Assembly: GCA_951406725.2 (NCBI GenBank)
Contig: OX597835.1
Span: forward strand, 22,072,001 to 22,136,000
DNA length: 64,000 nt
Reading direction: 5' to 3'
DNA from: Octopus vulgaris
Taxonomy: Eukaryota
How positions within the stretch are numbered: the first letter of the stretch is position 1; the number at the start of each line of letters is the position of its first letter. The notes beneath the pieces are model-generated. The model saw only the letters and a program-made list of their open reading frames with translations. It had not been told where the DNA came from and ran no database searches. The translations under genes and the position numbers were made by a program. Below, piece by piece: positions 8,990-59,185 of the stretch.

Positions 8990-10210
8990 GGACAATGATG
9001 ATGATGATGATGATGATGATGACAATGACTACGACGACAACGATGACGATAATGATGATGATGATGATGATAAGAATGATGGGGTGGAGGAGGAGGAGGA
9101 TGCCGACAGGGTGATGATGAGAATAATGATAGTGATGGCAATAATGATGATGATGGTGATAAGAATGATGATGATGATGATGATGAGGAGGAGGAGGAGG
9201 AGGATGGTGATTGTGATGGCAATGATGATGATGATGATGATAAGAATGATGATGATGATGAGGAGGAGGATGAGGATGGTGACTAGGTGATGATGAGAAT
9301 GATGATAGTGATGGCAATGATGATGATGATGGTGATAAGAATGATGATGATGTGGAGGAGGAGGAGGAAGAGCAGGAAAAGAAGGAAGAGGAGGATGGTG
9401 GCAAGGTGATGATGAGAATGATGATAGTGTTGGCAATGATGATGATGATGATGATAAGAATGATAATGATGATGATGATGAGGAGGAGGAGGAAGTGGAG
9501 GAAGAAGTGGAGCAGGAAGAGAAGGAAGTGGAGGATGGTGACTAGGTGATGATGAGAATGATGATAGTGTTGGCAATGATAATGATGATGATGATAAGAA
9601 TGATGATGATGATGAGGAGGAGGAGGTGGAGGAAGAAGTGGAGGATGGTGGCAAGGGGATGATGAGAATGATGATAGTGATGGCAATAATGATGATGATA
9701 AGAATGATGATGAGGTGGAGGAGGAGGAAGTGGAGGAAGAAGTGGAGGAGGAAGAGCAGGAAGAGGAGGATGGTGGCAAGGGGATGATGAGAATGATGAT
9801 AGTGATGGCAATGTTGATGATGATGATGATAAGAATGATGATGAGGAGGAGGTGGAAGTGGAGGAAGAGCAGGAAGAGGAGGATGGTGGCAAGGGGATGA
9901 TGAGAATGATGATAGTGATAGCAATGATGATGATAAGAATGATGATGAGGAGGAGGAGGAAGTGGAGGAAGAAGTGGAGGAAGAGAAGGAAGAGGAGGAT
10001 GGTGGCAAGGGGATGATGAGAATGATGATAGTGATGGCAATGATGATGATGATGATGATAAGAATGATGATGAGGAGGAGGAGGAAGAGGAGGATGGTGG
10101 CAAGGGGATGATGAGAATGATGATAGTGATGGCAATGTTGCCGATGACGACAACGATGATGATGATAAGAACGATGAAAATGATTTTGATGATGATGATG
10201 ATGATGATGT
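8990..10210. repeat. Higher-order minisatellite (~100-130-bp units) built from GAT/GAG trinucleotides
   Basis: The marker GGATGGTGGCAAGGGGATGATGAGAATGATGATAGTGATGGCAAT recurs about 10 times. Confidence 0.9.
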
Positions 10211-10211
10211 T

Positions 10212-13200
10212 GTACTTTGTCCACTTCCATTACTATTTCTTAAGTATTTGCATGTCTGCATTTGGTCTAATTCTCTCGCGTCAGAGTCTCTTTGTCTTCG
10301 TCTAACATGGTTGTCAGTGCTCTGAATTAATTTTTCTCTTCCCTCCAAGGTTGCCTTATCATATCTTATTAATCAGAATATCTTATCACCTTCTCAGGTA
10401 ATTCCATGTACTCTCTCTCGGCAGTTATTATAATCATCATCATCATCATCACCATCATCATCACCACCATCACCACCACCACCACCACCACCACCACCAC
10501 CACCACCACCACCACCACCACCATCATTATCATCATCAATGCCAATGTCATTGTCATTGTTATTTCCATCGTCGTCATCGTCATTGTCGTCATCGTCATT
10601 GTCGTCATCATTGTTGTCGTGATTTACAGTAAAACTTTTCCATGCTTGCATGACACAGGTAAGATATGCTAATGACAGGAAAAAGATTACGGAAGAAGTC
10701 TTATAGGTGTATCTGTAAACTGCATATAATAAAGAAAGCTGCTTATTAATTAGCTGGAATTACTTAAGTTTACAAAAGAAAGCTATTATTAAAGTCTAAG
10801 ATGTCTAGAAAATTGTTATAAATTTTGATTTTGATATATATTTGTTATTAAAATAAGATTCTTTTGCCAACGAACATTCAAACACACACTTTAATCATAA
10901 TGCTAAATTTTGTTTATTGCAACATGTCTCTCTCACTTTCTCTCTGTCTTTCTCTCTCTCTCTCTCCCACACACACACACATACACACACACACACACAT
11001 ACACACACACACTTTCTCTCATTCTGTTCAATTGTTTGCAATAAAATATCTTTATTCATTATGGCATATGTCCCTCCCTCCCTCTCTCTCTCACTCTCTC
11101 TCTCATTCACTCACTCTCTCACCCACTCTCTCACTTGCTCTCTGCTGTTTTATTCAATTGCTTTTGTTAGGAATAAGTGATCATAAAGTTTTTCTTTCAT
11201 ATACTCTATCTGTTCCTTTTCTCTCTTTTACTTGTTTTAGTCATTTGACTGTGGCCATGCTGGAGCACCGTCTTTAGTCGAGCATCGACCCCAGGACTTA
11301 TTCTTTGTGAACCTAGTACTTATTCTATCGATCTCTTTTGCCAAACCGTTAAGTTACAGGGATGTAAACACACCAGCATCGGTTGTCAATCGGTGTAGGA
11401 GGGACGAACACATACACAAACATACATACATATATACGACAGGCTTCTTTCAGTTTCCGTCTGCCAAATCCACTCACAAGGCTTTGGTTGGCCTGAGGCT
11501 ATAGTAGAAGACACTTGCCCAAGATACTACGCAGTGGGAATGAAACCGGAACCATGTGGTTGGGAAGCAAGCTACTTACCACACAGCCATGAAAGTCTTC
11601 ATCAAATATATTTATCATGTCAAAATTACTTTAAAGTTTTATTTTGTTACAGACATACGTGTTAACCATGGTCCTTTCACTAATGAAACCCTTCGATTGT
11701 CTTCTGCCTCTGGAGATGATGATGATGATGATGATGATGATAACGATGATGATGACAACAGTGATTAGAATGATGATGAGGATGATGATGACAACAACGA
11801 TGATGATGACAAGAACGATGATGATGATGATGATGTACTTTGTCCACTTCCATTACTAATTCTTAAGTATTTGCATGTCAGCATTTGGTCCAATTCTCTC
11901 GCGTCAGAGTCTCTTTGTCTTCGTCTAACATGGTTGTCAGTGCTCTGAATTAATTTTTTCTCTTCCCTCCAAGGTCGCCTTATCATATTTTATTAATCAG
12001 AATATCTTATCACCTTCTCAGGTAATTCCATGTACTCTCTCTCAGCAGTTATTATAATCATCATCATCATCATCACCATCATCATCATCACCACCACCAT
12101 CACCACCACCACCACCATCATCATTATCATCATCAATGTCAAAGTCGTCGTCATCACCATCATCATCATCACCATCATCATCACCATCATCATCATCACC
12201 ATCACCACTACCACCACCACCACCACCACCATCATCATTATCATCATCAATGTCAATGTCATTGTCATTGTTATTTTCATCGTCGTCGTCGTCATTGTCG
12301 TCATCATTGTTGTCGTGATTTACAGTAAAATTTTCCATGCTTGCATGACACAGGTAAGATATGCTAATGAAAGGAAAAAGACTACGGAAGAAGTCTTATA
12401 GGTGTATCTGTAAACTGCATATAATAAAGAAAGCTGCTTATTAATTTGCTGGAATTACTTAAGTTTACAAAAGAAAGCAAATATTAAAGTCTAAGATGTC
12501 TAGAAAATTGTTATAAATTTTAATTTTGATATATATTTGTTATTAAAATAAGATTCTTTTGCCAACAAACGTTCAAACACACACTTTAATCATAATGCTA
12601 AATTTTGTTTATTGCAACATGTCTCTCTCACTTTCTCTCTGTCTTTCTCTCTCTCTCTCTCCCACACACACACACATACACACACACACACATACACACA
12701 CACACTTTCTCTCATTCTGTTCAATTGTTTGCAATAAAATATCTTTATTCATTATGGCATATGTCCCTCCCTCCCTCTCTCTCTCACTCTCTCTCTCATT
12801 CACTCACTCTCTCACCCACTCTCTCACTTGCTCTCTGCTGTTTTATTCAATTGCTTTTGTTAGGAATAAGTGATCATAAAGTTTTTCTTTCATATACTCT
12901 ATCTGTTCCTTTTCTCTCTTTTACTTGTTTTAGTCATTTGACTGTGGCCATGCTGGAGCACCGTCTTTAGTCGAGCATCGACCCCAGGACTTATTCTTTG
13001 TGAACCTAGTACTTATTCTATCGATCTCTTTTGCCAAACCGTTAAGTTACAGGGATGTAAACACACCAGCATCGGTTGTCAATCGGTGTAGGAGGGACGA
13101 ACACATACACAAACATACATACATATATACGACAGGCTTCTTTCAGTTTCCGTCTGCCAAATCCACTCACAAGGCTTTGGTTGGCCTGAGGCTATAGTAG

Positions 13201-13407
13201 AAGACACTTGCCCAAGATACTACGCAGTGGGAATGAAACCGGAACCATGTGGTTGGGAAGCAAGCTACTTACCACACAGCCATGAAAGTCTTCATCAAAT
13301 ATATTTATCATGTCAAAATTACTTTAAAGTTTTATTTTGTTACAGACATACGTGTTAACCATGGTCCTTTCACTAATGAAACCCTTCGATTGTCTTCTGC
13401 CTCTGGA
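10212..13407. repeat. Tandem duplication, ~1.5-1.7-kb unit (about 10212-11715 and 11834-13407)
   Basis: Near-identical sequence. Identical ORFs at 11307 and 13000 (offset 1693). Each copy contains a minus-strand family A SINE. Confidence 0.95.
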
Positions 13408-13791: not shown

Positions 13792-13891
13792 CTTCTGCCT
13801 CTAATCCTCTTTGCGTTTATTGCTAAATACCACACTGATGTATGTTTTTTCAACATTTTCCACAATTTTTATTTTTCTATTCTCACTCTCT

Positions 13892-14225
13892 CATCATCAT
13901 CATCATCGTTTAACGTCCGTTCTCCATGCTAGCATGGGTTGGACAGTTCGACCGGGGATCTGGGAAGCCAGAAGGCTGCACCAGGCTCCGGTCTTATCTG
14001 GCAAAGTTTCTACAGCTGGATGCCCTTCCTAACGCCAACCACTCCGAGAGTGTAGTGGGTGCTTTTTACGTGCCACCTGCACTGGTGCCAGGCGAGGCTG
14101 GCATCGGCCACGGTCGGATTGGTGCATTTTACGTGCCACCTGCACGGAAGCCAGTCGAGGCGGCACTGGCTTCAGCCACGATTCGGATGGTGCTTTTTAC
14201 GTGCCACCGTGTCGGTGGCACGTCT
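13892..14225 (-). mobile_element. RTE-LINE 3' end
   Basis: (CAT)n-CGTTTAACGTCC...CCATGCTAGCATGG. Near-identical to 33120-33445 (+) and 57130-57410. Confidence 0.8.
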
Positions 14226-16700: not shown

Positions 16701-18539
16701 GATTACTAAAATATATAGGCATACTTGTGTAGTAAGAAGCTTGCTTCCCAACCACATTGTTCCAGGTTCAGTCCCACTGCATGGCACCTTCGGTGAGTGT
16801 CTTTTACTATAGCCTCGGGCTGACCAAAATTTTGTGAGTGGATTTGGTACATGGAAACTGAAAGAAGCCCATTCATATATGTGTGTGTGTGTGTCTGTGT
16901 TTGTCCCCCCACACCCCCACCCACCACTTGACAAACAGCGTTGGTTTGTTTACATCTCCATAGCTTAGCAGCGGCAACAAAAGTAGTACCAGACTTTAAA
17001 AAAGCGGAGAGAAAATAAGTATTATGATCAATTCATTTGACCAATGATTCCTCAATGCAGTGCCCCAGCATGGGCGCAATCTAATGACTAAAACAAGTAA
17101 AAAAAACAATAACAATATCTATATATATTTCTTTATTGCCCACAAGGGGCTAAACATAGAGGGGACGAACAAGGACAGACAAACGGATTAAGTCGATTAC
17201 ATCAACCCCCTCAGTGCAAAACTGGTACTTTATTTATCGACCCTGAAAGGATGAAAGGTAAAGTCGACCTCCGCGGAATTTGAACTCAGAATGTAAGGAC
17301 AGACGAAATACCGCTAAGCATTTCGCCCGGCGCGCTAACGAGTCTGCCAGCACACCGCCTTTTCTATATACATACATATATACATATATGTTGTGGTGAT
17401 CACCCTCAAGTGAGACAGACACAGCAAGCAGTGTCAGTCAGTGAGGCATGCCGTACAGGCCAGTCATGCAAACAACGAAGTTACGTCATCATGATGCAGG
17501 ACATGTCGGTGGTGACGAGGAGTCAAACTCCATGCAGTGGCAGATAAGACTAACCCAGAACTGAACTACACACAGTGAAAAATAATATAAATCCGTTTGT
17601 AGGATTTCTGTCAGGTCACAATGTGTTAGTAGCACTACCAGTAAACAATGTAGACTGGTACTACCTGCAGCATTCTGAAGAGAAAAATAATTCTGGGTGG
17701 AAGAAAAAGAAATGGAAAAAAAAAATGATGCTGTGTGAAAGAAGCAAAAATAAATCTCAAGCGGGGAGGTGTTGTAGCGGACACCTCCAAGTGAGGAGTG
17801 GGCTGTTCCACTACTGATAAATAGTGGACAGACACAGCAAGCAATGTCAGTTGGCGAGGTATGCCGTATGGGCCAGTCACACAGACGATGAAGTTACATC
17901 ATCATAATGCAGGACATGTGACCTCGTGAGCACCGCTAGCAATTTTTTTCCTCTGTCTTCCCTTTTCGGGATCTTTCCTTCTCCTTTGTTTCCGACGAAG
18001 AGCTCCGCTCGAAACGTTAAACCCTCCTTCTTCCCTTCTTTCCTAAGCGTCCAATAATGCTTTATTTGTTCCACGTCCTTGCGTTGCTGTGTTTTTTTGT
18101 GTTTTCTTGTTTGGATTAACTATATATATATACATTAAAATTGGTAAGATCAGTTTATGGGATTACTATAGGTTTCCCATCCATAAAGAGTTTAGCTTTA
18201 TGGTGTATTGTCAAATCCCAAAATCTGTTGGCCCAAGGCCTCTTAAGAATATGGAGGAGGAAACACCATAAAGCCAAACACTTTATGGACGGGAAACCTA
18301 AGGTAATCCCTTAAACTGGCCTTCCCCCTTTTTTAATATATACTGCTCTATATCTTAGAGTGCACTTTTTTCAGATTTGTTTTTTACTGATTATATATAT
18401 CATCATCATCATCGTTTAACGTCCGTTCTCCATGCTAGCATGGGTTGGACGGTTCGACCGGGGATCTGGGAAGCCAGAAGGCTGCACCAGGCTCCAGTCT
18501 GATCTGGCAGTGTTTCTACAGCTGGATGCCCTTCCTAAC

Positions 18540-26399: not shown

Positions 26400-27002
26400 C
26401 ATCATCATCATCATCATCATCATCGTTTAACGTCCGCTTTCCATGCTAGCATGGGTTGGACGGTTCAACTGGGGTCTGGGGAGCCAGAAGGCTGCACCAG
26501 GCTAGTCAGATCTGGCAGTGTTTCAATAGCTGGATGCCCTTCCTAACGCCAACCACTCCGAGAGTGTAGTGGGTGATTTTATGTGCCACCGACACAGGTG
26601 CTAGACGAGGCTGGTGAACGGCCACGCTCGGATGGTGTTTTTTATGTTCCACCGACACAGGTGCCAGACGAGGCTGGCAGACGGCCACGCTCGGATGGTG
26701 TTTTTTATGTGCCACTGACACAGGTGCCAGACGAGGCTGGCGAACGGCCACGCTCGGATGGTGTTTTTTATGTGCCACCGACACAGGTGCCAGACGAGGC
26801 TGGCGAACGGCCATGCTCGGATGGTGTTTTTTATGTGCCACCGAAACAGGTGCCAGACGAGGCTGGCGAACGGCCACGCTTGGATGCTGTTTTTTATGTG
26901 CCACCGACACAGGTGCCAGACGAGGCTGGCGAACGGCCACGCTCGAATGGTGTTTTTTATGTGCCACCGACACAGGTGCCAGACGAGGCTGGCAGACAGC
27001 CA
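26400..27002 (-). mobile_element. RTE-LINE 3' end with a 57-58-bp tandem array (about 7.5 units)
   Basis: The unit TTTTATGTGCCACCGACACAGGTGCCAGACGAGGCTGGCGAACGGCCACGCTCGGATGGTGT repeats from 26577 to 27000. Confidence 0.85.
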
Positions 27003-33092: not shown

Positions 33093-33543
33093 CCGTTGAT
33101 GTGTGTGTGTGTGTGTGTGTCGGTGGCACGTAAAAAAGCACCATCCGAATCGTGGCCGAAGTCAGTGCCGCCTCGACTGGCTTCCGTGCAGGTGGCACGT
33201 AAAATGCACCAATCCGACCGTGGCCGATGCCAGCCTCGCCTGGCACCAGTGCAGGTGGCACGTAAAAAGCACCCACTACACTCACGGAGTGGTTGGCGTT
33301 AGGAAGGGCATCCAGCTGTAGAAACATTGCCAGATAAGACCGGAGCCTGGTGCAGCCTTCTGGCTTCCCAGATCCCCGGTCGAACCGTCCAACCCATGCT
33401 AGCATGGAGAATGGACGTTAAACGATGATGATGATGATGATGATATATATACCGGAGTAAACACATAAATGTGAAACAAGGTGGAAAAAAGAGTACTCAA
33501 ATACCAGTGGTAGAGTAATATGCTTTATTTAAAGCAGCAGAAA

Positions 33544-33590
<47 letters not shown>

Positions 33591-34220: not shown

Positions 34221-35169
34221 TTATCTTTTATCTCTTATTTTTCACTTGTTTCATTCATTTCACTGTGGCCATGCTTGGGCACCATCTGGAAATGTTTTTA
34301 GTTGAACAAATTAACCCCAGAGCTTATTCTCTTTTAAGCCTAGTACTTATTTGATTGGTCATTTTTGTTGAACTGCTAGCTCATGAGGACATAACAGGCA
34401 TGGTCCCAGGAATTTTTCAAAGGGAGGGCACAAAGTCAGAAGGATATACAATTCCAGGAGACAAGGGTGTAATAACATTACTTTGAAGGGCGCACTCTTT
34501 TTCTTGGGGGGAGCACGTGCCCCTCAATCCCCCGCTGTGAATTCACTCCTGTGTAAACACAACAAACACTGGTTCTCAAGTGGTGGTGGTGGACAAACAC
34601 AGACATACACACATAGATATATACATGTACATATAGAGCAGTCACCAAATTTCATTCCATATTGGCTACCTCTGATGAGTGCAGGGTTACATAATCGGAT
34701 TGCTATCTCATACTCTATTGAATCCCTAGTGTGAAACCAACTGGTAAGTTCAGCCGTGATGGATATATAATACTGTACACTTCAGATAATATATATATAT
34801 ATATATACAACAGATTCTCTCAGCTTCCATCTACCAAATCCACCCACATGGCTTTGGTTAACCTGAGGCTATAGTAGAAGACACTTGCTCAAGGTGCCAT
34901 TAAGATTCAACTGAATCGTAATTATTTCTTACACACACATATATATATATATATGTTATATATGTGTGTGTGTGTTTGAGCGGTATTGGTATCCAGAAGA
35001 CCCAAAGTGGCAGGTAAGGCTATGTAAGTGCTACAGGAGGACTGTAGTTAGACTCTCGGTTCGATAATAATAGAAGCAAGGAGTCTAATGCGGGTCTTGT
35101 GTGAGCATGTATATGTTAAATAAAATGAGACAATGAGGATTTATAGGACATTTATATAGAGAAAGGTAG

Positions 35170-42505: not shown

Positions 42506-43769
42506 ATAATAATAATAATAATGATGATAATAATTATATATTTATCATACATTATATCAGTATAACCATGATGTAACCCCAAAATCTGATTCACTACTCA
42601 GTATCATTAGACAGTAGCCAGCATAATGAAATAAGAGCTATATTTGCACACTCCTAACATTTCCATAAACAAATTTAAAAGATATATACACACGCACACA
42701 CACACACACATATATGTACTTTATTATGCGTTTTAATAAAGCATGTTACTCTACCTCAGGTATTCGAATACTATTTTTTCCTCCTTGTTTTGCATTTATG
42801 TGCTTACTTTGGTATATATATATATATATATATATATATTTAGCGTCCGTTTTCCATGCTAGCATGGGTTGGACGGTTCAACTGGGGTCTGGGGAGCCCG
42901 AAGGCTGCACCAGGCCAGTCAGATCTGGCAGTGTTTCTACAGCTGGATGCCCTTCCTAACGCCAACCACTCCGAGAGTGTAGTGGGTGATTTTATGTGCC
43001 ACCGACACAGGTGCCAGACGAGGCTGGCGAACGGCCACGCTCGGATGGTGTTTTTTATGTGCCACCGACACAGGTGCCAGACGAGGCTGGCAGACGGCCA
43101 CGCTCGGATGGTGTTTTTATGTGCCACCGACACAGGTGCCAGATGAGGCTGGCGAACGGCCACGATCGGATGGTGTTTGTTATGTGCCCGCAGCACGGAG
43201 GCCAGTCGATGCGGTACTGGCTACGGCCACGTTCAGATGGTTTTCTTGTGTGCCACCGGCACTGGTACCACAAAGATACAAATTCCATTGATGTTCATCT
43301 ATTTTGATTTGATTTGATTTGATTTTCACTTGCCTCAACAGGTCTTCACAAGTGTCACAAGAAGGAAGGTATGCACAGGTGGACTGACTACGTCCCAGGC
43401 ACATATATAGTTATTATTATTATATATATAGTTATTATTATTATTATTATTATTATTATTGTATTTCGTTTTGGAATTTGGTTTGCTAGATTCTTCATGT
43501 GAGTTTGTATGTTGAAGCATATTCGGTTGTGTCTGGGGAGAGTCATTCTCTTTTAGTGCTTTATTATTTAACACACTCACTGGTAAGGTTTCCACTCATT
43601 TACTTATTTTGCCTAAAATTTTCATTGTGTCTTGCAATGACAACTGAAAAGTTTGCAAGACGCAACGAAAATTTTAGGCAAAATAAATAAGTAAATGAGG
43701 GGAAACTTTACCGGTGAGTGTGTTAAATAATAAAGCAATAAAGGAGAATGACACTCCCCAAACACAATA

Positions 43770-52556: not shown

Positions 52557-53139
52557 TTGTATGTCTGTGTTTGTCCCCCCAACATTGCTTGACAACCGAT
52601 ATTGGTGTGTTTACAAAGAATAAGTCTTGGGGTTGATTTGCTCGACTAAAGGCAGTTCTCCAGCATGAACGCAGTCAAATGACTGAAACAAATAAAAGAA
52701 TAAACATATATATATATACATATATACATACATACATATATATATATATATACATGAGTATATATGTATACAAATATATACTTATACAAGTATTTATATA
52801 TGTATGCATATATATGTGTGTATATATTATATGTGTGTGTGTGTATATATATATATAGTGATAGGATTCATATTTTCTGACCTGTATTTGCTACCATTGG
52901 TTTCATGCACACATGTGTACGAACTTCTGGTGAAAGACTAATTCACTTATGCCGAAGAGTTTAAATAAAATCTAAACCTGCAGTGTTCATGCTTTACTAG
53001 TTGGAAGATCAGGAATAGAGTCTTCCAAGTAGTAAAGCCTGAACACAGCATGTATGTATGTATAAAATGTGACCTCGTGTGTACCGTTGGCGATTTTTTT
53101 TCCTCTGTCTTCCCTTCTCTGGATCTTTCCTTCTCCTGT

Positions 53140-53174
53140 GTTTCTGACGAAGAGCTCCGCTCGAAACGTTAAAC
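53140..53174 (+). ncRNA. Minimal hammerhead ribozyme motif in a short dispersed repeat (about 53070-53270; second copy 17918-18122)
   Basis: gttt-CTGACGA-a-GAG-ctccg-CTC-GAAA-C-GTT-aaac. Stem I is gttt/aaac and stem III is the palindrome ACGT. Confidence 0.6.
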
Positions 53175-53302
53175 CCTCCTTCCCTTCTTTCCTGAGCGTC
53201 CAATAATACTATATTTGTTCTACGTCCTCGCGTTGTTGTGTTTTTTGTGCTTTCTTGTTTGGATTAACTTTATATGTATAAATATATATATATGTATGTA
53301 TG

Positions 53303-57129: not shown

Positions 57130-58375
57130 CATCATCGTCGTTTAACGTCCGTTCTCCATGCTAGCATGGGTTGGACGGTTCGACCGGGGTTCTGGGAAGC
57201 CAGAAGGCTGCACCAGGCTCCAGTCTAATCTGGCAATGTTTCTACAGCTGGATGCCCTTCCTAACGCCAACCACTCCGTGAGTGTAGTGGGTGCTTTTTA
57301 CGTGCCACCTGCACAGGTGCCAGGCGGGGCTGGCAACGGCCACGGTCAGATTGGTGTATTTTATGTGCCACCGGCACGGAAGCCAGTCGAGGCGGTGCTG
57401 GCATCGGCCACGAGTCGGATAGTGCTTTACGTACCACCAGACCAGGGATCCTGGCTGGTTCAATTCGATTTCGATTTCGCTTGCCCCAACATGTCTTCAC
57501 AAGCAAAGGGGGTTGGCATGGGTGCCTGTCGTACGGTCGCATTGGAGTATTTTACATGCCACGGCCACGAGTCGGATAGTGCTTTTTACGTACCACCAGA
57601 CCAGGGATCCTGGCTGGTTCAATTCGATTTCGATTTCGCTTGCCCCAACATGTCTTCACAAGCAAAGGGGTTGGCATGGGTGCCTGTCGTACGGTCGCAT
57701 TGGAGTATTTTACGTGCCACGGCCACGAGTCGGATAGTGCTTTTTACGTACCACCAGGCCAGGGATCCTGGCTGGTTCAATTCGGTTTCGATTTCGATTT
57801 CGCTTGCCCCAACATGTCTTCGCAAGCATGGGGGGTTGGCATGGGTGTCTGTCGTCGGATGAGGTTCTATATCGACTTCGCTTGCCTCAACCGGTCTTTG
57901 TGTCCAAGGGAGGAAAGGCATTCATAAGTGGGCTGGGCTCACTTGTCCTGCCTGGTCTTCTCACGTACAGAATATTTCCAAAGGTCTCGGTCTCTGGTCA
58001 TTTCCTCAGTGAGGCCTAAAGTTCGAAGGTCGTGCTTCACCACCTCGTCCCAGGTTTTCCTGGGTCTACCTCTTCCATGGGTTCCCTCAACTGCTAGGGA
58101 TTGGCACTTTCTCACACACCTATCTTCATCCATTCTCGCCACATGACCATACCAGCGCAATCGTCTCTCTTGCACACCACAACTGATGCTTCTTAGGTAC
58201 AACATTTCTCTCAAGGTGCTAACGCTCTGTCGAGTATGTACACTGACATTACACATCCATCGGAGCATACTGGCTTCATTCCTCACGAGCTTACGCACGT
58301 CCTCAGCAGTCACGGCCCATGTTTCGCTGCCATGTAGCATGGCTGTTCGTACACACGCATCATACAGTCTGCCTT

Positions 58376-58377
<2 letters not shown>
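57130..58377 (-). mobile_element. RTE-clade LINE 3' portion: end of ORF, ~800-bp 3' UTR and (ATG)n tail
   Basis: ORF LHGSETW...RRLRWYGHVARM...GRGRPRKTW...DRDLW is the classic RTE C-terminus. The UTR carries three ~147-bp tandem repeats and the tail shared by the many short copies. Confidence 0.9.
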
Positions 58378-58411
<34 letters not shown>

Positions 58412-58502
58412 CTTCTTCACTGTTCTTGTTCTGTCAACGTTTTGGCGTTCAGTCGAGTGTATTGGCATGGATGTGGCAACATCTGAAATGTTGTCGAGGT
58501 AT

Positions 58503-58574
58503 ATGTGGCTGATGAAGATAAATCAAATATATGTGGGCAGACATATTTTGAAGAATCTGAAACAGGTACCACAT
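58503..58574 (+). ncRNA. Type-I hammerhead ribozyme motif
   Basis: ATGTGG-CTGATGA-AGAT-[long hairpin]-ATCT-GAAA-C-ag-GTA-CCACAT: all core nucleotides, 6-bp stem I, extended stem II and 2-bp stem III. Confidence 0.75.
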
Positions 58575-58757
58575 TATCCCTTTCTAGATATTTCATTTTC
58601 CAGATGTTCTCCCTAGAGGTAAGACAATTTTTTTCATGTTTGTTGCACACACGCATTTTTGCTAGTACATACGCAGTGAAGCTATACATTAGTGTCGTAT
58701 TTATTACGTTCGCTATTTTCCAGTAAATATCGGTACTTCGTTGTGCCATTTATTTAC

Positions 58758-58803
<46 letters not shown>

Positions 58804-59185
58804 TGTACACATACATATAAAACATGAATAGAGATTCAATGAATCAGAGCTCACTCTAAGCTCTCTGCCGGGTGCACAGTTACATAAAAAAGCAGTGAAT
58901 AAAGCTAGGGTTTAATCATACTATTGTTCTGGAAATCTAGGAATCACAATGGCAGAGAATACATATGAAATTGATCAGATGAGAGAATAGAAGTTTATTC
59001 CATTTGTTGACAGCTGTTTCATGATCTGTGTCTAGTTACATCAGCAATGCTACATCAAGTGAGCTATGTATAATTCATCTCCTCACTCCACTTCATAAGT
59101 GCATATATATACACACACATACATATATATGTGTATGTATATATATATATACGTATATAATTATATATATATATATATATATACA

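Follow-up and report, generated by a model that had tools for sequence, protein, structure and literature searches.

A type-I hammerhead of the dimer type in a high-copy, (TA)n-ending repeat of Octopus vulgaris, probably the 3′ part of a Penelope-like element

We analysed a window of 64 kb (the whole stretch of Octopus vulgaris DNA considered here), animal DNA that is rich in repeats and microsatellites and has a GC content of about 38%. The features at and around the hammerhead motif are collected in Table 1. The motif lies in a copy of a high-copy repeat, and upstream of the (TAA)11 that adjoins its 5′ side is a fragment of a LINE, which we take to be of RTE type. Among the 69 protein matches of this fragment, the sole named relative is an O. 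vulgaris hypothetical protein (78% identity over 51% of the query). Other repeats are present in the window. For example, 57265-57855 comprises about 3.5 units of roughly 157 nt in tandem, which form the end of a dispersed repeat; this repeat recurs with varying internal unit number at 13886-14209, 33116-33553, 26404-27002 and 42710-43270. In addition, about 1.65 kb is directly duplicated at 91% identity (10107-11714 and 11733-13407).

Table 1. Features at and around the hammerhead motif (positions in the window; PLE, Penelope-like element).
Feature	Position	Strand	Basis or remark
Neighbouring unrelated LINE fragment	57942..58376	-	protein search
(TAA)11 run at 5′ junction	58377..58409	.	sequence
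High-copy repeat copy, probably 5′-truncated; presumed PLE 3′ end (pseudo-LTR)	58410..58757	+	contig alignments
110-aa antisense ORF, most likely spurious	58417..58749	-	ORF list, protein and Pfam searches
Type-I hammerhead motif	58503..58574	+	6-bp stem I, 4-bp stem II with an 11-bp extension, 2-bp stem III
Catalytic core first box CUGAUGA	58509..58515	+	contains AUG at 58512
Stem III region	58562..58567	+	family palindrome ACCGGU, broken here by A at 58564
Predicted cleavage site	58568..58569	+	after A of GUA, from hammerhead consensus
Intron-like segment, 105 nt, putative	58619..58723	+	AG/GTAAG donor, T-rich CAG acceptor
(TA)n microsatellite, putative target site at 3′ end	58761..58796	.	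sequence and contig ends

The catalytic core, the stems and GUA were all located where the initial annotation had placed them. Stem I is formed by 58503-58508 with 58569-58574, and stem II by 58516-58519 with 58555-58558; the closing pair of stem II is A-U, where G-C is usual. Beyond a 3x3 internal loop, stem II continues as the 11-bp extension (58523-58534/58541-58551), which has one bulged base. GAAA is at 58559-58562 and GUA at 58566-58568, and stem III of this copy has a 2-nt loop. The helix order and the core (CUGANGA, GAAA, UH) are those of a type-I hammerhead, with helix III only 2 bp long. The position of cleavage, between A58568 and 58569, is taken by us from the established hammerhead consensus. 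The extra base after A9 and the G10.1-C11.1 closing pair are both absent. Because A-U closes stem II directly, the motif does not have the form of the minimal PLE hammerhead (min-HHR).

A type-I descriptor, searched on both strands, matched only once in the 64 kb, and the match was 58503-58574. In 100 shuffles (first-order Markov, per kb), a loose descriptor gave 0.02 matches per window and a strict one gave none (0/100), with the thresholds of the descriptors having been chosen after the motif was seen. The folding z-score of the 72-nt stretch is -3.78, only one of 200 shuffles being equally stable, and the predicted pair probabilities for stems I and II are 0.61-1.0. The Rfam search proposed in the initial annotation fails. 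At the gathering score there is no match across the whole window, and at E up to 10 the region 58200-58900 gives 13 matches, none of them to a hammerhead family. The long stem II together with the short stem III may explain this result.

The motif had been described as hidden in a 110-aa ORF. This ORF exists, on the antisense strand; it looks non-coding and has no credible homolog. Pfam gave nothing above the cut-off for it or for any of the 14 ORFs of the window. Among 1.84 billion proteins, three matches were obtained at E up to 0.001. All three are tandem-repeat proteins, in which many weak repeats are summed (about 25-56% identity over 16-73 residues), and two of them are of unrelated types (BRCA2 repeats and Ig-like repeats). 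We rejected these matches as repeat-inflated and regard the ORF as most likely spurious. One protein matched by the ORF, P0001, is an unnamed NCBI prediction of 1077 aa with about 11 repeats of 92 aa, in other words a translated tandem array of 276 nt. Because its best match spans the antisense of the hammerhead region, P0001 could represent a retrozyme-like array of another organism that was wrongly called as a protein.

On the plus strand, the intron-like segment is the sole donor-acceptor pair of its kind in 128 kb (both strands; the pattern was chosen post hoc). Among the contigs described below, from four runs, there is no joint that skips 58619-58723 and no spliced contig. The frame that starts at AUG 58512 (58512-58757) runs for 34 codons in the window copy and then stops. 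It would extend for 47 codons, to the end of the element, only if the intron-like segment were removed and the common family letter were present at 58615. The chance of such an open 47-codon frame is 0.03 for one test, selected post hoc, and we regard it as a lead only. When the 68-aa plus-strand frame through the motif was compared with longer proteins, none of 13 candidates proved to be a relative.

Copies of the repeat were studied in contigs assembled from four public runs, namely X1, X3 and X5 (genomic-scale) and X9 (an RNA run by guess; no RNA run is among the listed holders of parts of 58410-58760). The runs in which the family is high-copy carry the organism labels A, B and C, and X9 was not taken as a sign of expression. 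Parts of 58410-58760 occur in 20 of the 24 listed runs, under four organism labels and with at most 48% of its words in any one. The contigs aligned to 58410-58757 number 861 in X1, 807 in X3, 509 in X5 and 36 in X9. The alignment ends at 58757 with (TA)n behind it in 20 (X1), 25 (X3) and 15 (X5) contigs, and in X5 five contigs also have (TA)n before a very short 3′ piece. Among eight X5 pieces listed, two leave the alignment at 58728-58729 and go on with 36-40 other letters, to be compared with the optional tail of 30-40 bp in endonuclease-bearing PLEs. Thus, the retroelement-like repeat that had been proposed at about 58410-58760 is borne out: 58410-58757 belongs to a high-copy family with a set 3′ end at (TA)n. 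In the window itself there is no second copy of this element, and it is not in tandem there. In each genomic-scale run, 48-56 contigs extend beyond the ends of the stretch, and the depth at 58410 is still high. Therefore, 58410-58757 is probably a fragment of a longer element, whereas the initial annotation had suggested a non-autonomous one of about 350 nt.

The depth along the repeat is uneven. The ratio of 58602-58733 to 58506-58565 is 15.2 in X1, 10.0 in X3, 12.4 in X5 and 2.7 in X9; summed contig depth is not copy number, and only the shape of the profile was used. Joints that go back along the repeat are rare. One of the 861 X1 contigs has a joint 58749 to 58410, with a depth of 110 against about 25,000 there, and one X9 contig has a joint 58757 to 58563; X3 and X5 have none. 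It should be noted that short contigs lose such joints and that a whole ORF could lie where the two sides of a joint are separated.

The variants among these contigs bear on the fold. Among the 40 variants listed, out of 54, ten lie within 58503-58574, and the 13 core bases are free of them. Two-sided changes that stay Watson-Crick were found at 58506-58571 and 58507-58570 (both in stem I) and at 58532-58543, and a fourth adds a new pair closing loop II; the remaining two variants in the motif are in the internal loop and in loop III. Eight variants, including both stem I pair changes, fit a single 229-nt X9 contig (equal depth and exact distance from the contig end), and so the stem I changes appear to be phased. 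The depths of the stem I partner changes in X1 are unequal, about 67% on the 5′ side and about 8% on the 3′ side, and the phasing therefore rests on one contig. The naive chance of three restored pairs is 0.037, before any tree-aware correction. The initial annotation had tied its proposal to a conserved core and to compensating changes in the stems of genomic copies, and both are seen. Because the core bases have no listed variants and three stem pairs changed on both sides, the variation indicates that the hammerhead fold is under selection in this family.

The family differs from the window copy at one position of stem III. At 58564, C accounts for 99.8% (X1), 100% (X3), 100% (X5) and 91% (X9) of the depth, and the window copy has A. 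With C, 58562-58567 is the palindrome ACCGGU, and cleavage as a dimer would thus be allowed. A palindromic stem III lets two weak hammerheads form a shared helix III (PMC4209133, PMC6765202). The identical stem III, ac-cg-gt, is given for Chlamys-2_cBra in the supplement of PMC8557442. The dimer helix is predicted at -8.3 kcal/mol when both strands carry the family hexamer, at 0.0 when both carry that of the window copy and at -2.3 when one of each pairs. The monomer is predicted to misfold, with the core paired off (probability 0.96-0.97), whichever letter is at 58564. A58564 was therefore rejected as the cause of a special misfold, and only the dimer helix separates the window copy from the family. 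Further near-private letters of the window copy are at 58588, 58600 and 58693, and these letters suggest a fairly young, decaying insertion. The motif had been called intact. This stands for the 13 core bases and for stems I and II, but not for loop III, in which base 58564 departs from nearly all of the family depth. Taken with the family data, 58503-58574 is confirmed as a real type-I hammerhead of the dimer type in a retroelement-like repeat.

We consider it probable that 58410-58757 is a copy of a 5′-truncated pseudo-LTR of a PLE, ending at (TA)n and carrying a ribozyme that is predicted to be dead. The hammerhead is 189 nt upstream of the fixed 3′ end at 58757. This distance, (TA)n, the excess of the 3′ part and the intron-like signals agree with the 3′ pseudo-LTR of a PLE that bears an endonuclease. 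A terminal hammerhead, a fixed 3′ end, a microsatellite target and 5′ truncation are all found, depth being only a rough measure of the last; the 3′-biased depth (10-15x in X1, X3 and X5) is as 5′ truncation predicts. Naiad and Hydra clades target (TA)n, and the same is hypothesised for Neptune (PMC8557442, bioRxiv 10.1101/2021.04.23.441226). Hydra-clade PLEs carry 3′-terminal hammerheads, including one from Octopus bimaculoides, PLE pseudo-LTRs can retain introns and the tail is optional (PMC8557442). Octopus genomes are rich in Penelope repeats (PMC8967140). Against a PLE stand the helix sizes (stem I of 6 bp, stem II of 4 bp and no extra base after A9), which are not the minimal PLE form; in PMC4209133 these sizes are canonical and tied to tandem repeats. 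A gene for a reverse transcriptase (RT) or GIY-YIG protein linked to the repeat was found neither in the window copy nor by DNA pattern scans. Exact-pattern scans for longer relatives gave no match in viral contigs (three scans) or genome contigs (two scans), and an exact hammerhead-pattern scan of metagenome contigs also gave none. Three metagenome contigs matched a 20-mer of the 3′ part; only 23-24 nt align (in one case with a second patch of 24 nt), and these matches were set aside as chance. Because the link to RT or GIY-YIG was not made, we hold the assignment to a PLE at probable.

Two further kinds of hammerhead-like motif were observed in the window. An unrelated family is present at 53067-53270 (+; motif from 53144), with a copy at 17916-18122 (+; motif from about 17994). 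The two copies are 89% identical, and both finish in (TA)n about 95 nt past the cleavage site. The motif at 53067-53270 is a textbook minimal Penelope-type hammerhead with an extra A after the core, a G-C closing pair and the palindrome AACGUU; the copy at 17916-18122 has a core change at position 4. Directly upstream of 53067-53270 is an imperfect inverted repeat of 78 nt (52976-53053). We counted the presence of this second (TA)n-ending hammerhead family in favour of the PLE assignment. Another motif, at 34664-34760 (+; core at 34672), is about 40 nt before (TA)n. Its 4-bp stem III resembles that described for Hydra-1_Obim, stem I is imperfect and stem II is poor. Because its folding z-score is only -0.40, it is a weak, probably decayed candidate.

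Comparison with published systems gives likenesses on several sides. The hammerheads of animal PLE pseudo-LTRs (Cervera and de la Pena 2014, PMC4209133) share the type I order, the very short palindromic stem III, the dimer logic, covarying families and the occurrence mostly as single motifs of truncated elements. Unlike that form, 58503-58574 has no base between A9 and stem II, an A-U instead of a G-C closing pair, a stem I of 6 bp and a stem II extended by 11 bp via the 3x3 loop. Hydra-clade PLEs such as Hydra-1_Obim (Craig et al. 2021, PMC8557442) share (TA)n, a hammerhead near a fixed 3′ end and the likely host group. However, stem III in that clade is mostly 3-4 bp with a loop of 1-3 nt, as compared with 2 bp here, and Hydra-1_Obim ends about 30 nt past its motif, not 189 nt; by eye, its 3′ end is unlike 58410-58757. 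None of ten short exact family motifs was found for the published octopus PLEs (Naiad_Obim, Naiad_Ovul and Hydra-1_Obim) in the supplement text of PMC8557442, where line breaks or divergence could mask a match. Poseidon of Anolis carolinensis, PAc (Frangieh et al. 2024, PMC11167929), shares the AT-rich target and a hammerhead 100-200 nt before the 3′ end. Further likenesses are two 3′ ends about 29 nt apart, which is a weak hint, and an AUG at the start of stem II. The ORF of PAc begins at its hammerhead; in the window copy the corresponding frame is the short one from AUG 58512. PAc is described as nicking AT-rich DNA and priming internally, and its hammerhead is assisted by the protein but dispensable for insertion in vitro (PMC11167929). 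Retrozymes of mussel, coral and axolotl (Cervera and de la Pena 2020, PMC7229834; Li et al. 2026 preprint) share the canonical helix sizes, and axolotl HHR_Amex1 shares the weak palindromic stem III. Retrozymes are likewise about 350 nt long and low in GC, with no ORF seen. Unlike them, 58410-58757 is non-tandem in the window and has rare tandem joints in the runs, a strong 3′ bias and microsatellite flanks.

Other explanations can be weighed with these data. That a protein-coding gene (the 110-aa ORF) contains a chance look-alike of a hammerhead is highly improbable. The missing Rfam match and the three protein matches would fit it, but the strict descriptor found nothing in the shuffles, the stems covary in the family, the protein matches are repeat-inflated and Pfam is empty above the cut-off; provided that the contig variants are linked, we count it as refuted by the family data. 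It is also very unlikely that the window copy is itself an active ribozyme, whether it works as a monomer or in a weak dimer that contains tandem A-G mismatches, possibly from within a host intron. In favour of activity, the 13 core bases are all intact, as are stems I and II. However, stem III has just 2 bp and a loop of 2 nt, the prediction pairs the core off, the dimer helix is predicted at 0.0 kcal/mol, a second copy is absent from the 64 kb and a lone minimal motif gave no cleavage in PMC4209133. The initial annotation held this copy to be potentially active; with the family palindrome lost and no partner in the window, its ribozyme is most likely inactive, as judged from the predicted helices.

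It is unlikely, though less so, that 58410-58757 is a dispersed monomer of a non-LTR retrozyme, that is, a protein-free unit of about 350 nt which forms tandem arrays elsewhere, is cut from hammerhead to hammerhead, is circularised and is moved in trans by a Penelope-like RT. The canonical helix sizes, a length close to that of mussel retrozymes (350-390 bp; PMC7229834), the back-going joints (one contig each in X1 and X9), the known solo retrozyme monomers (10.64898/2026.07.22.740005) and the missing ORF agree with it. Yet only a single such joint is present among the X1 contigs and none in X3 and X5, the depth is uneven by 10-15x along the unit, and most ends run into (TA)n and not into a next unit. 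The sharp change in depth raises another point. Because the 3′ half is 10-15x deeper than the hammerhead half, there is a small chance that cleavage defines the 5′ end of most copies. Dimer cleavage after A58568 would then free an intron-retaining, SINE-like RNA of about 190 nt (about 58569-58757), which a Penelope-type RT would copy into (TA)n; we regard this as doubtful. Equally doubtful is the corollary that the hammerhead-bearing copies are rarer masters, outnumbered about tenfold by ribozyme-less products. In all four runs the depth increases between 58566 and 58613, and in X9 the bin 58566-58577 shows a doubling (from 42.8 to 96.6). Moreover, two of 32 listed pieces start at 58572, preceded by 84 and 11 letters that do not align, and the X9 joint goes back to 58563. 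However, the largest rise in X1, X3 and X5 lies near 58600 and not at 58569, alignments can be clipped just there by the private letters of the window copy (58564, 58588 and 58600), and ordinary truncation or diverged subfamilies look alike. The ends of RNAs are not visible in contigs, and the RNA origin of X9 is a guess. In addition, for the lizard PLE no reads started or stopped at the cleavage site, and insertion in vitro did not need cleavage (PMC11167929). If cleavage did set these ends, the genome would directly record cutting by PLE hammerheads in vivo that shapes insertions.

Under the preferred assignment to a PLE, we propose the following course of events. In a tandem transcript of the parent, two hammerheads would pair via ACCGGU, perhaps aided by the protein of the element, and cut after A58568. 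The RT and GIY-YIG protein of a full-length partner would nick (TA)n DNA and copy the element RNA from near 58757. Most copies would end early and retain only the last 150-200 nt. The window copy may have gained a few private substitutions after insertion, one of which would remove the dimer helix.

Thousands of hammerheads reside in Penelope-type repeats of many animal genomes. In giant squid, 235 Rfam hammerhead matches are reported (PMC6962438), and a hammerhead-bearing PLE from octopus has already been published (PMC8557442). The family of 58410-58757 is undescribed in the literature searched; Repbase and Dfam were outside the scope of that search, and File 1 of PMC4209133 and the supplements of 10.64898/2026.07.22.740005 may list octopus motifs. 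By itself, the copy at 58503-58574 is of little consequence, being an ordinary and probably dead hammerhead of a known kind. The value of the family is as a test case, since it is young and abundant and offers natural covariation and a natural palindrome mutant. Together with the apparent surplus of copies that sets in sharply past the cleavage site, these features allow a cheap, genome-only test of whether PLE hammerheads act in vivo.
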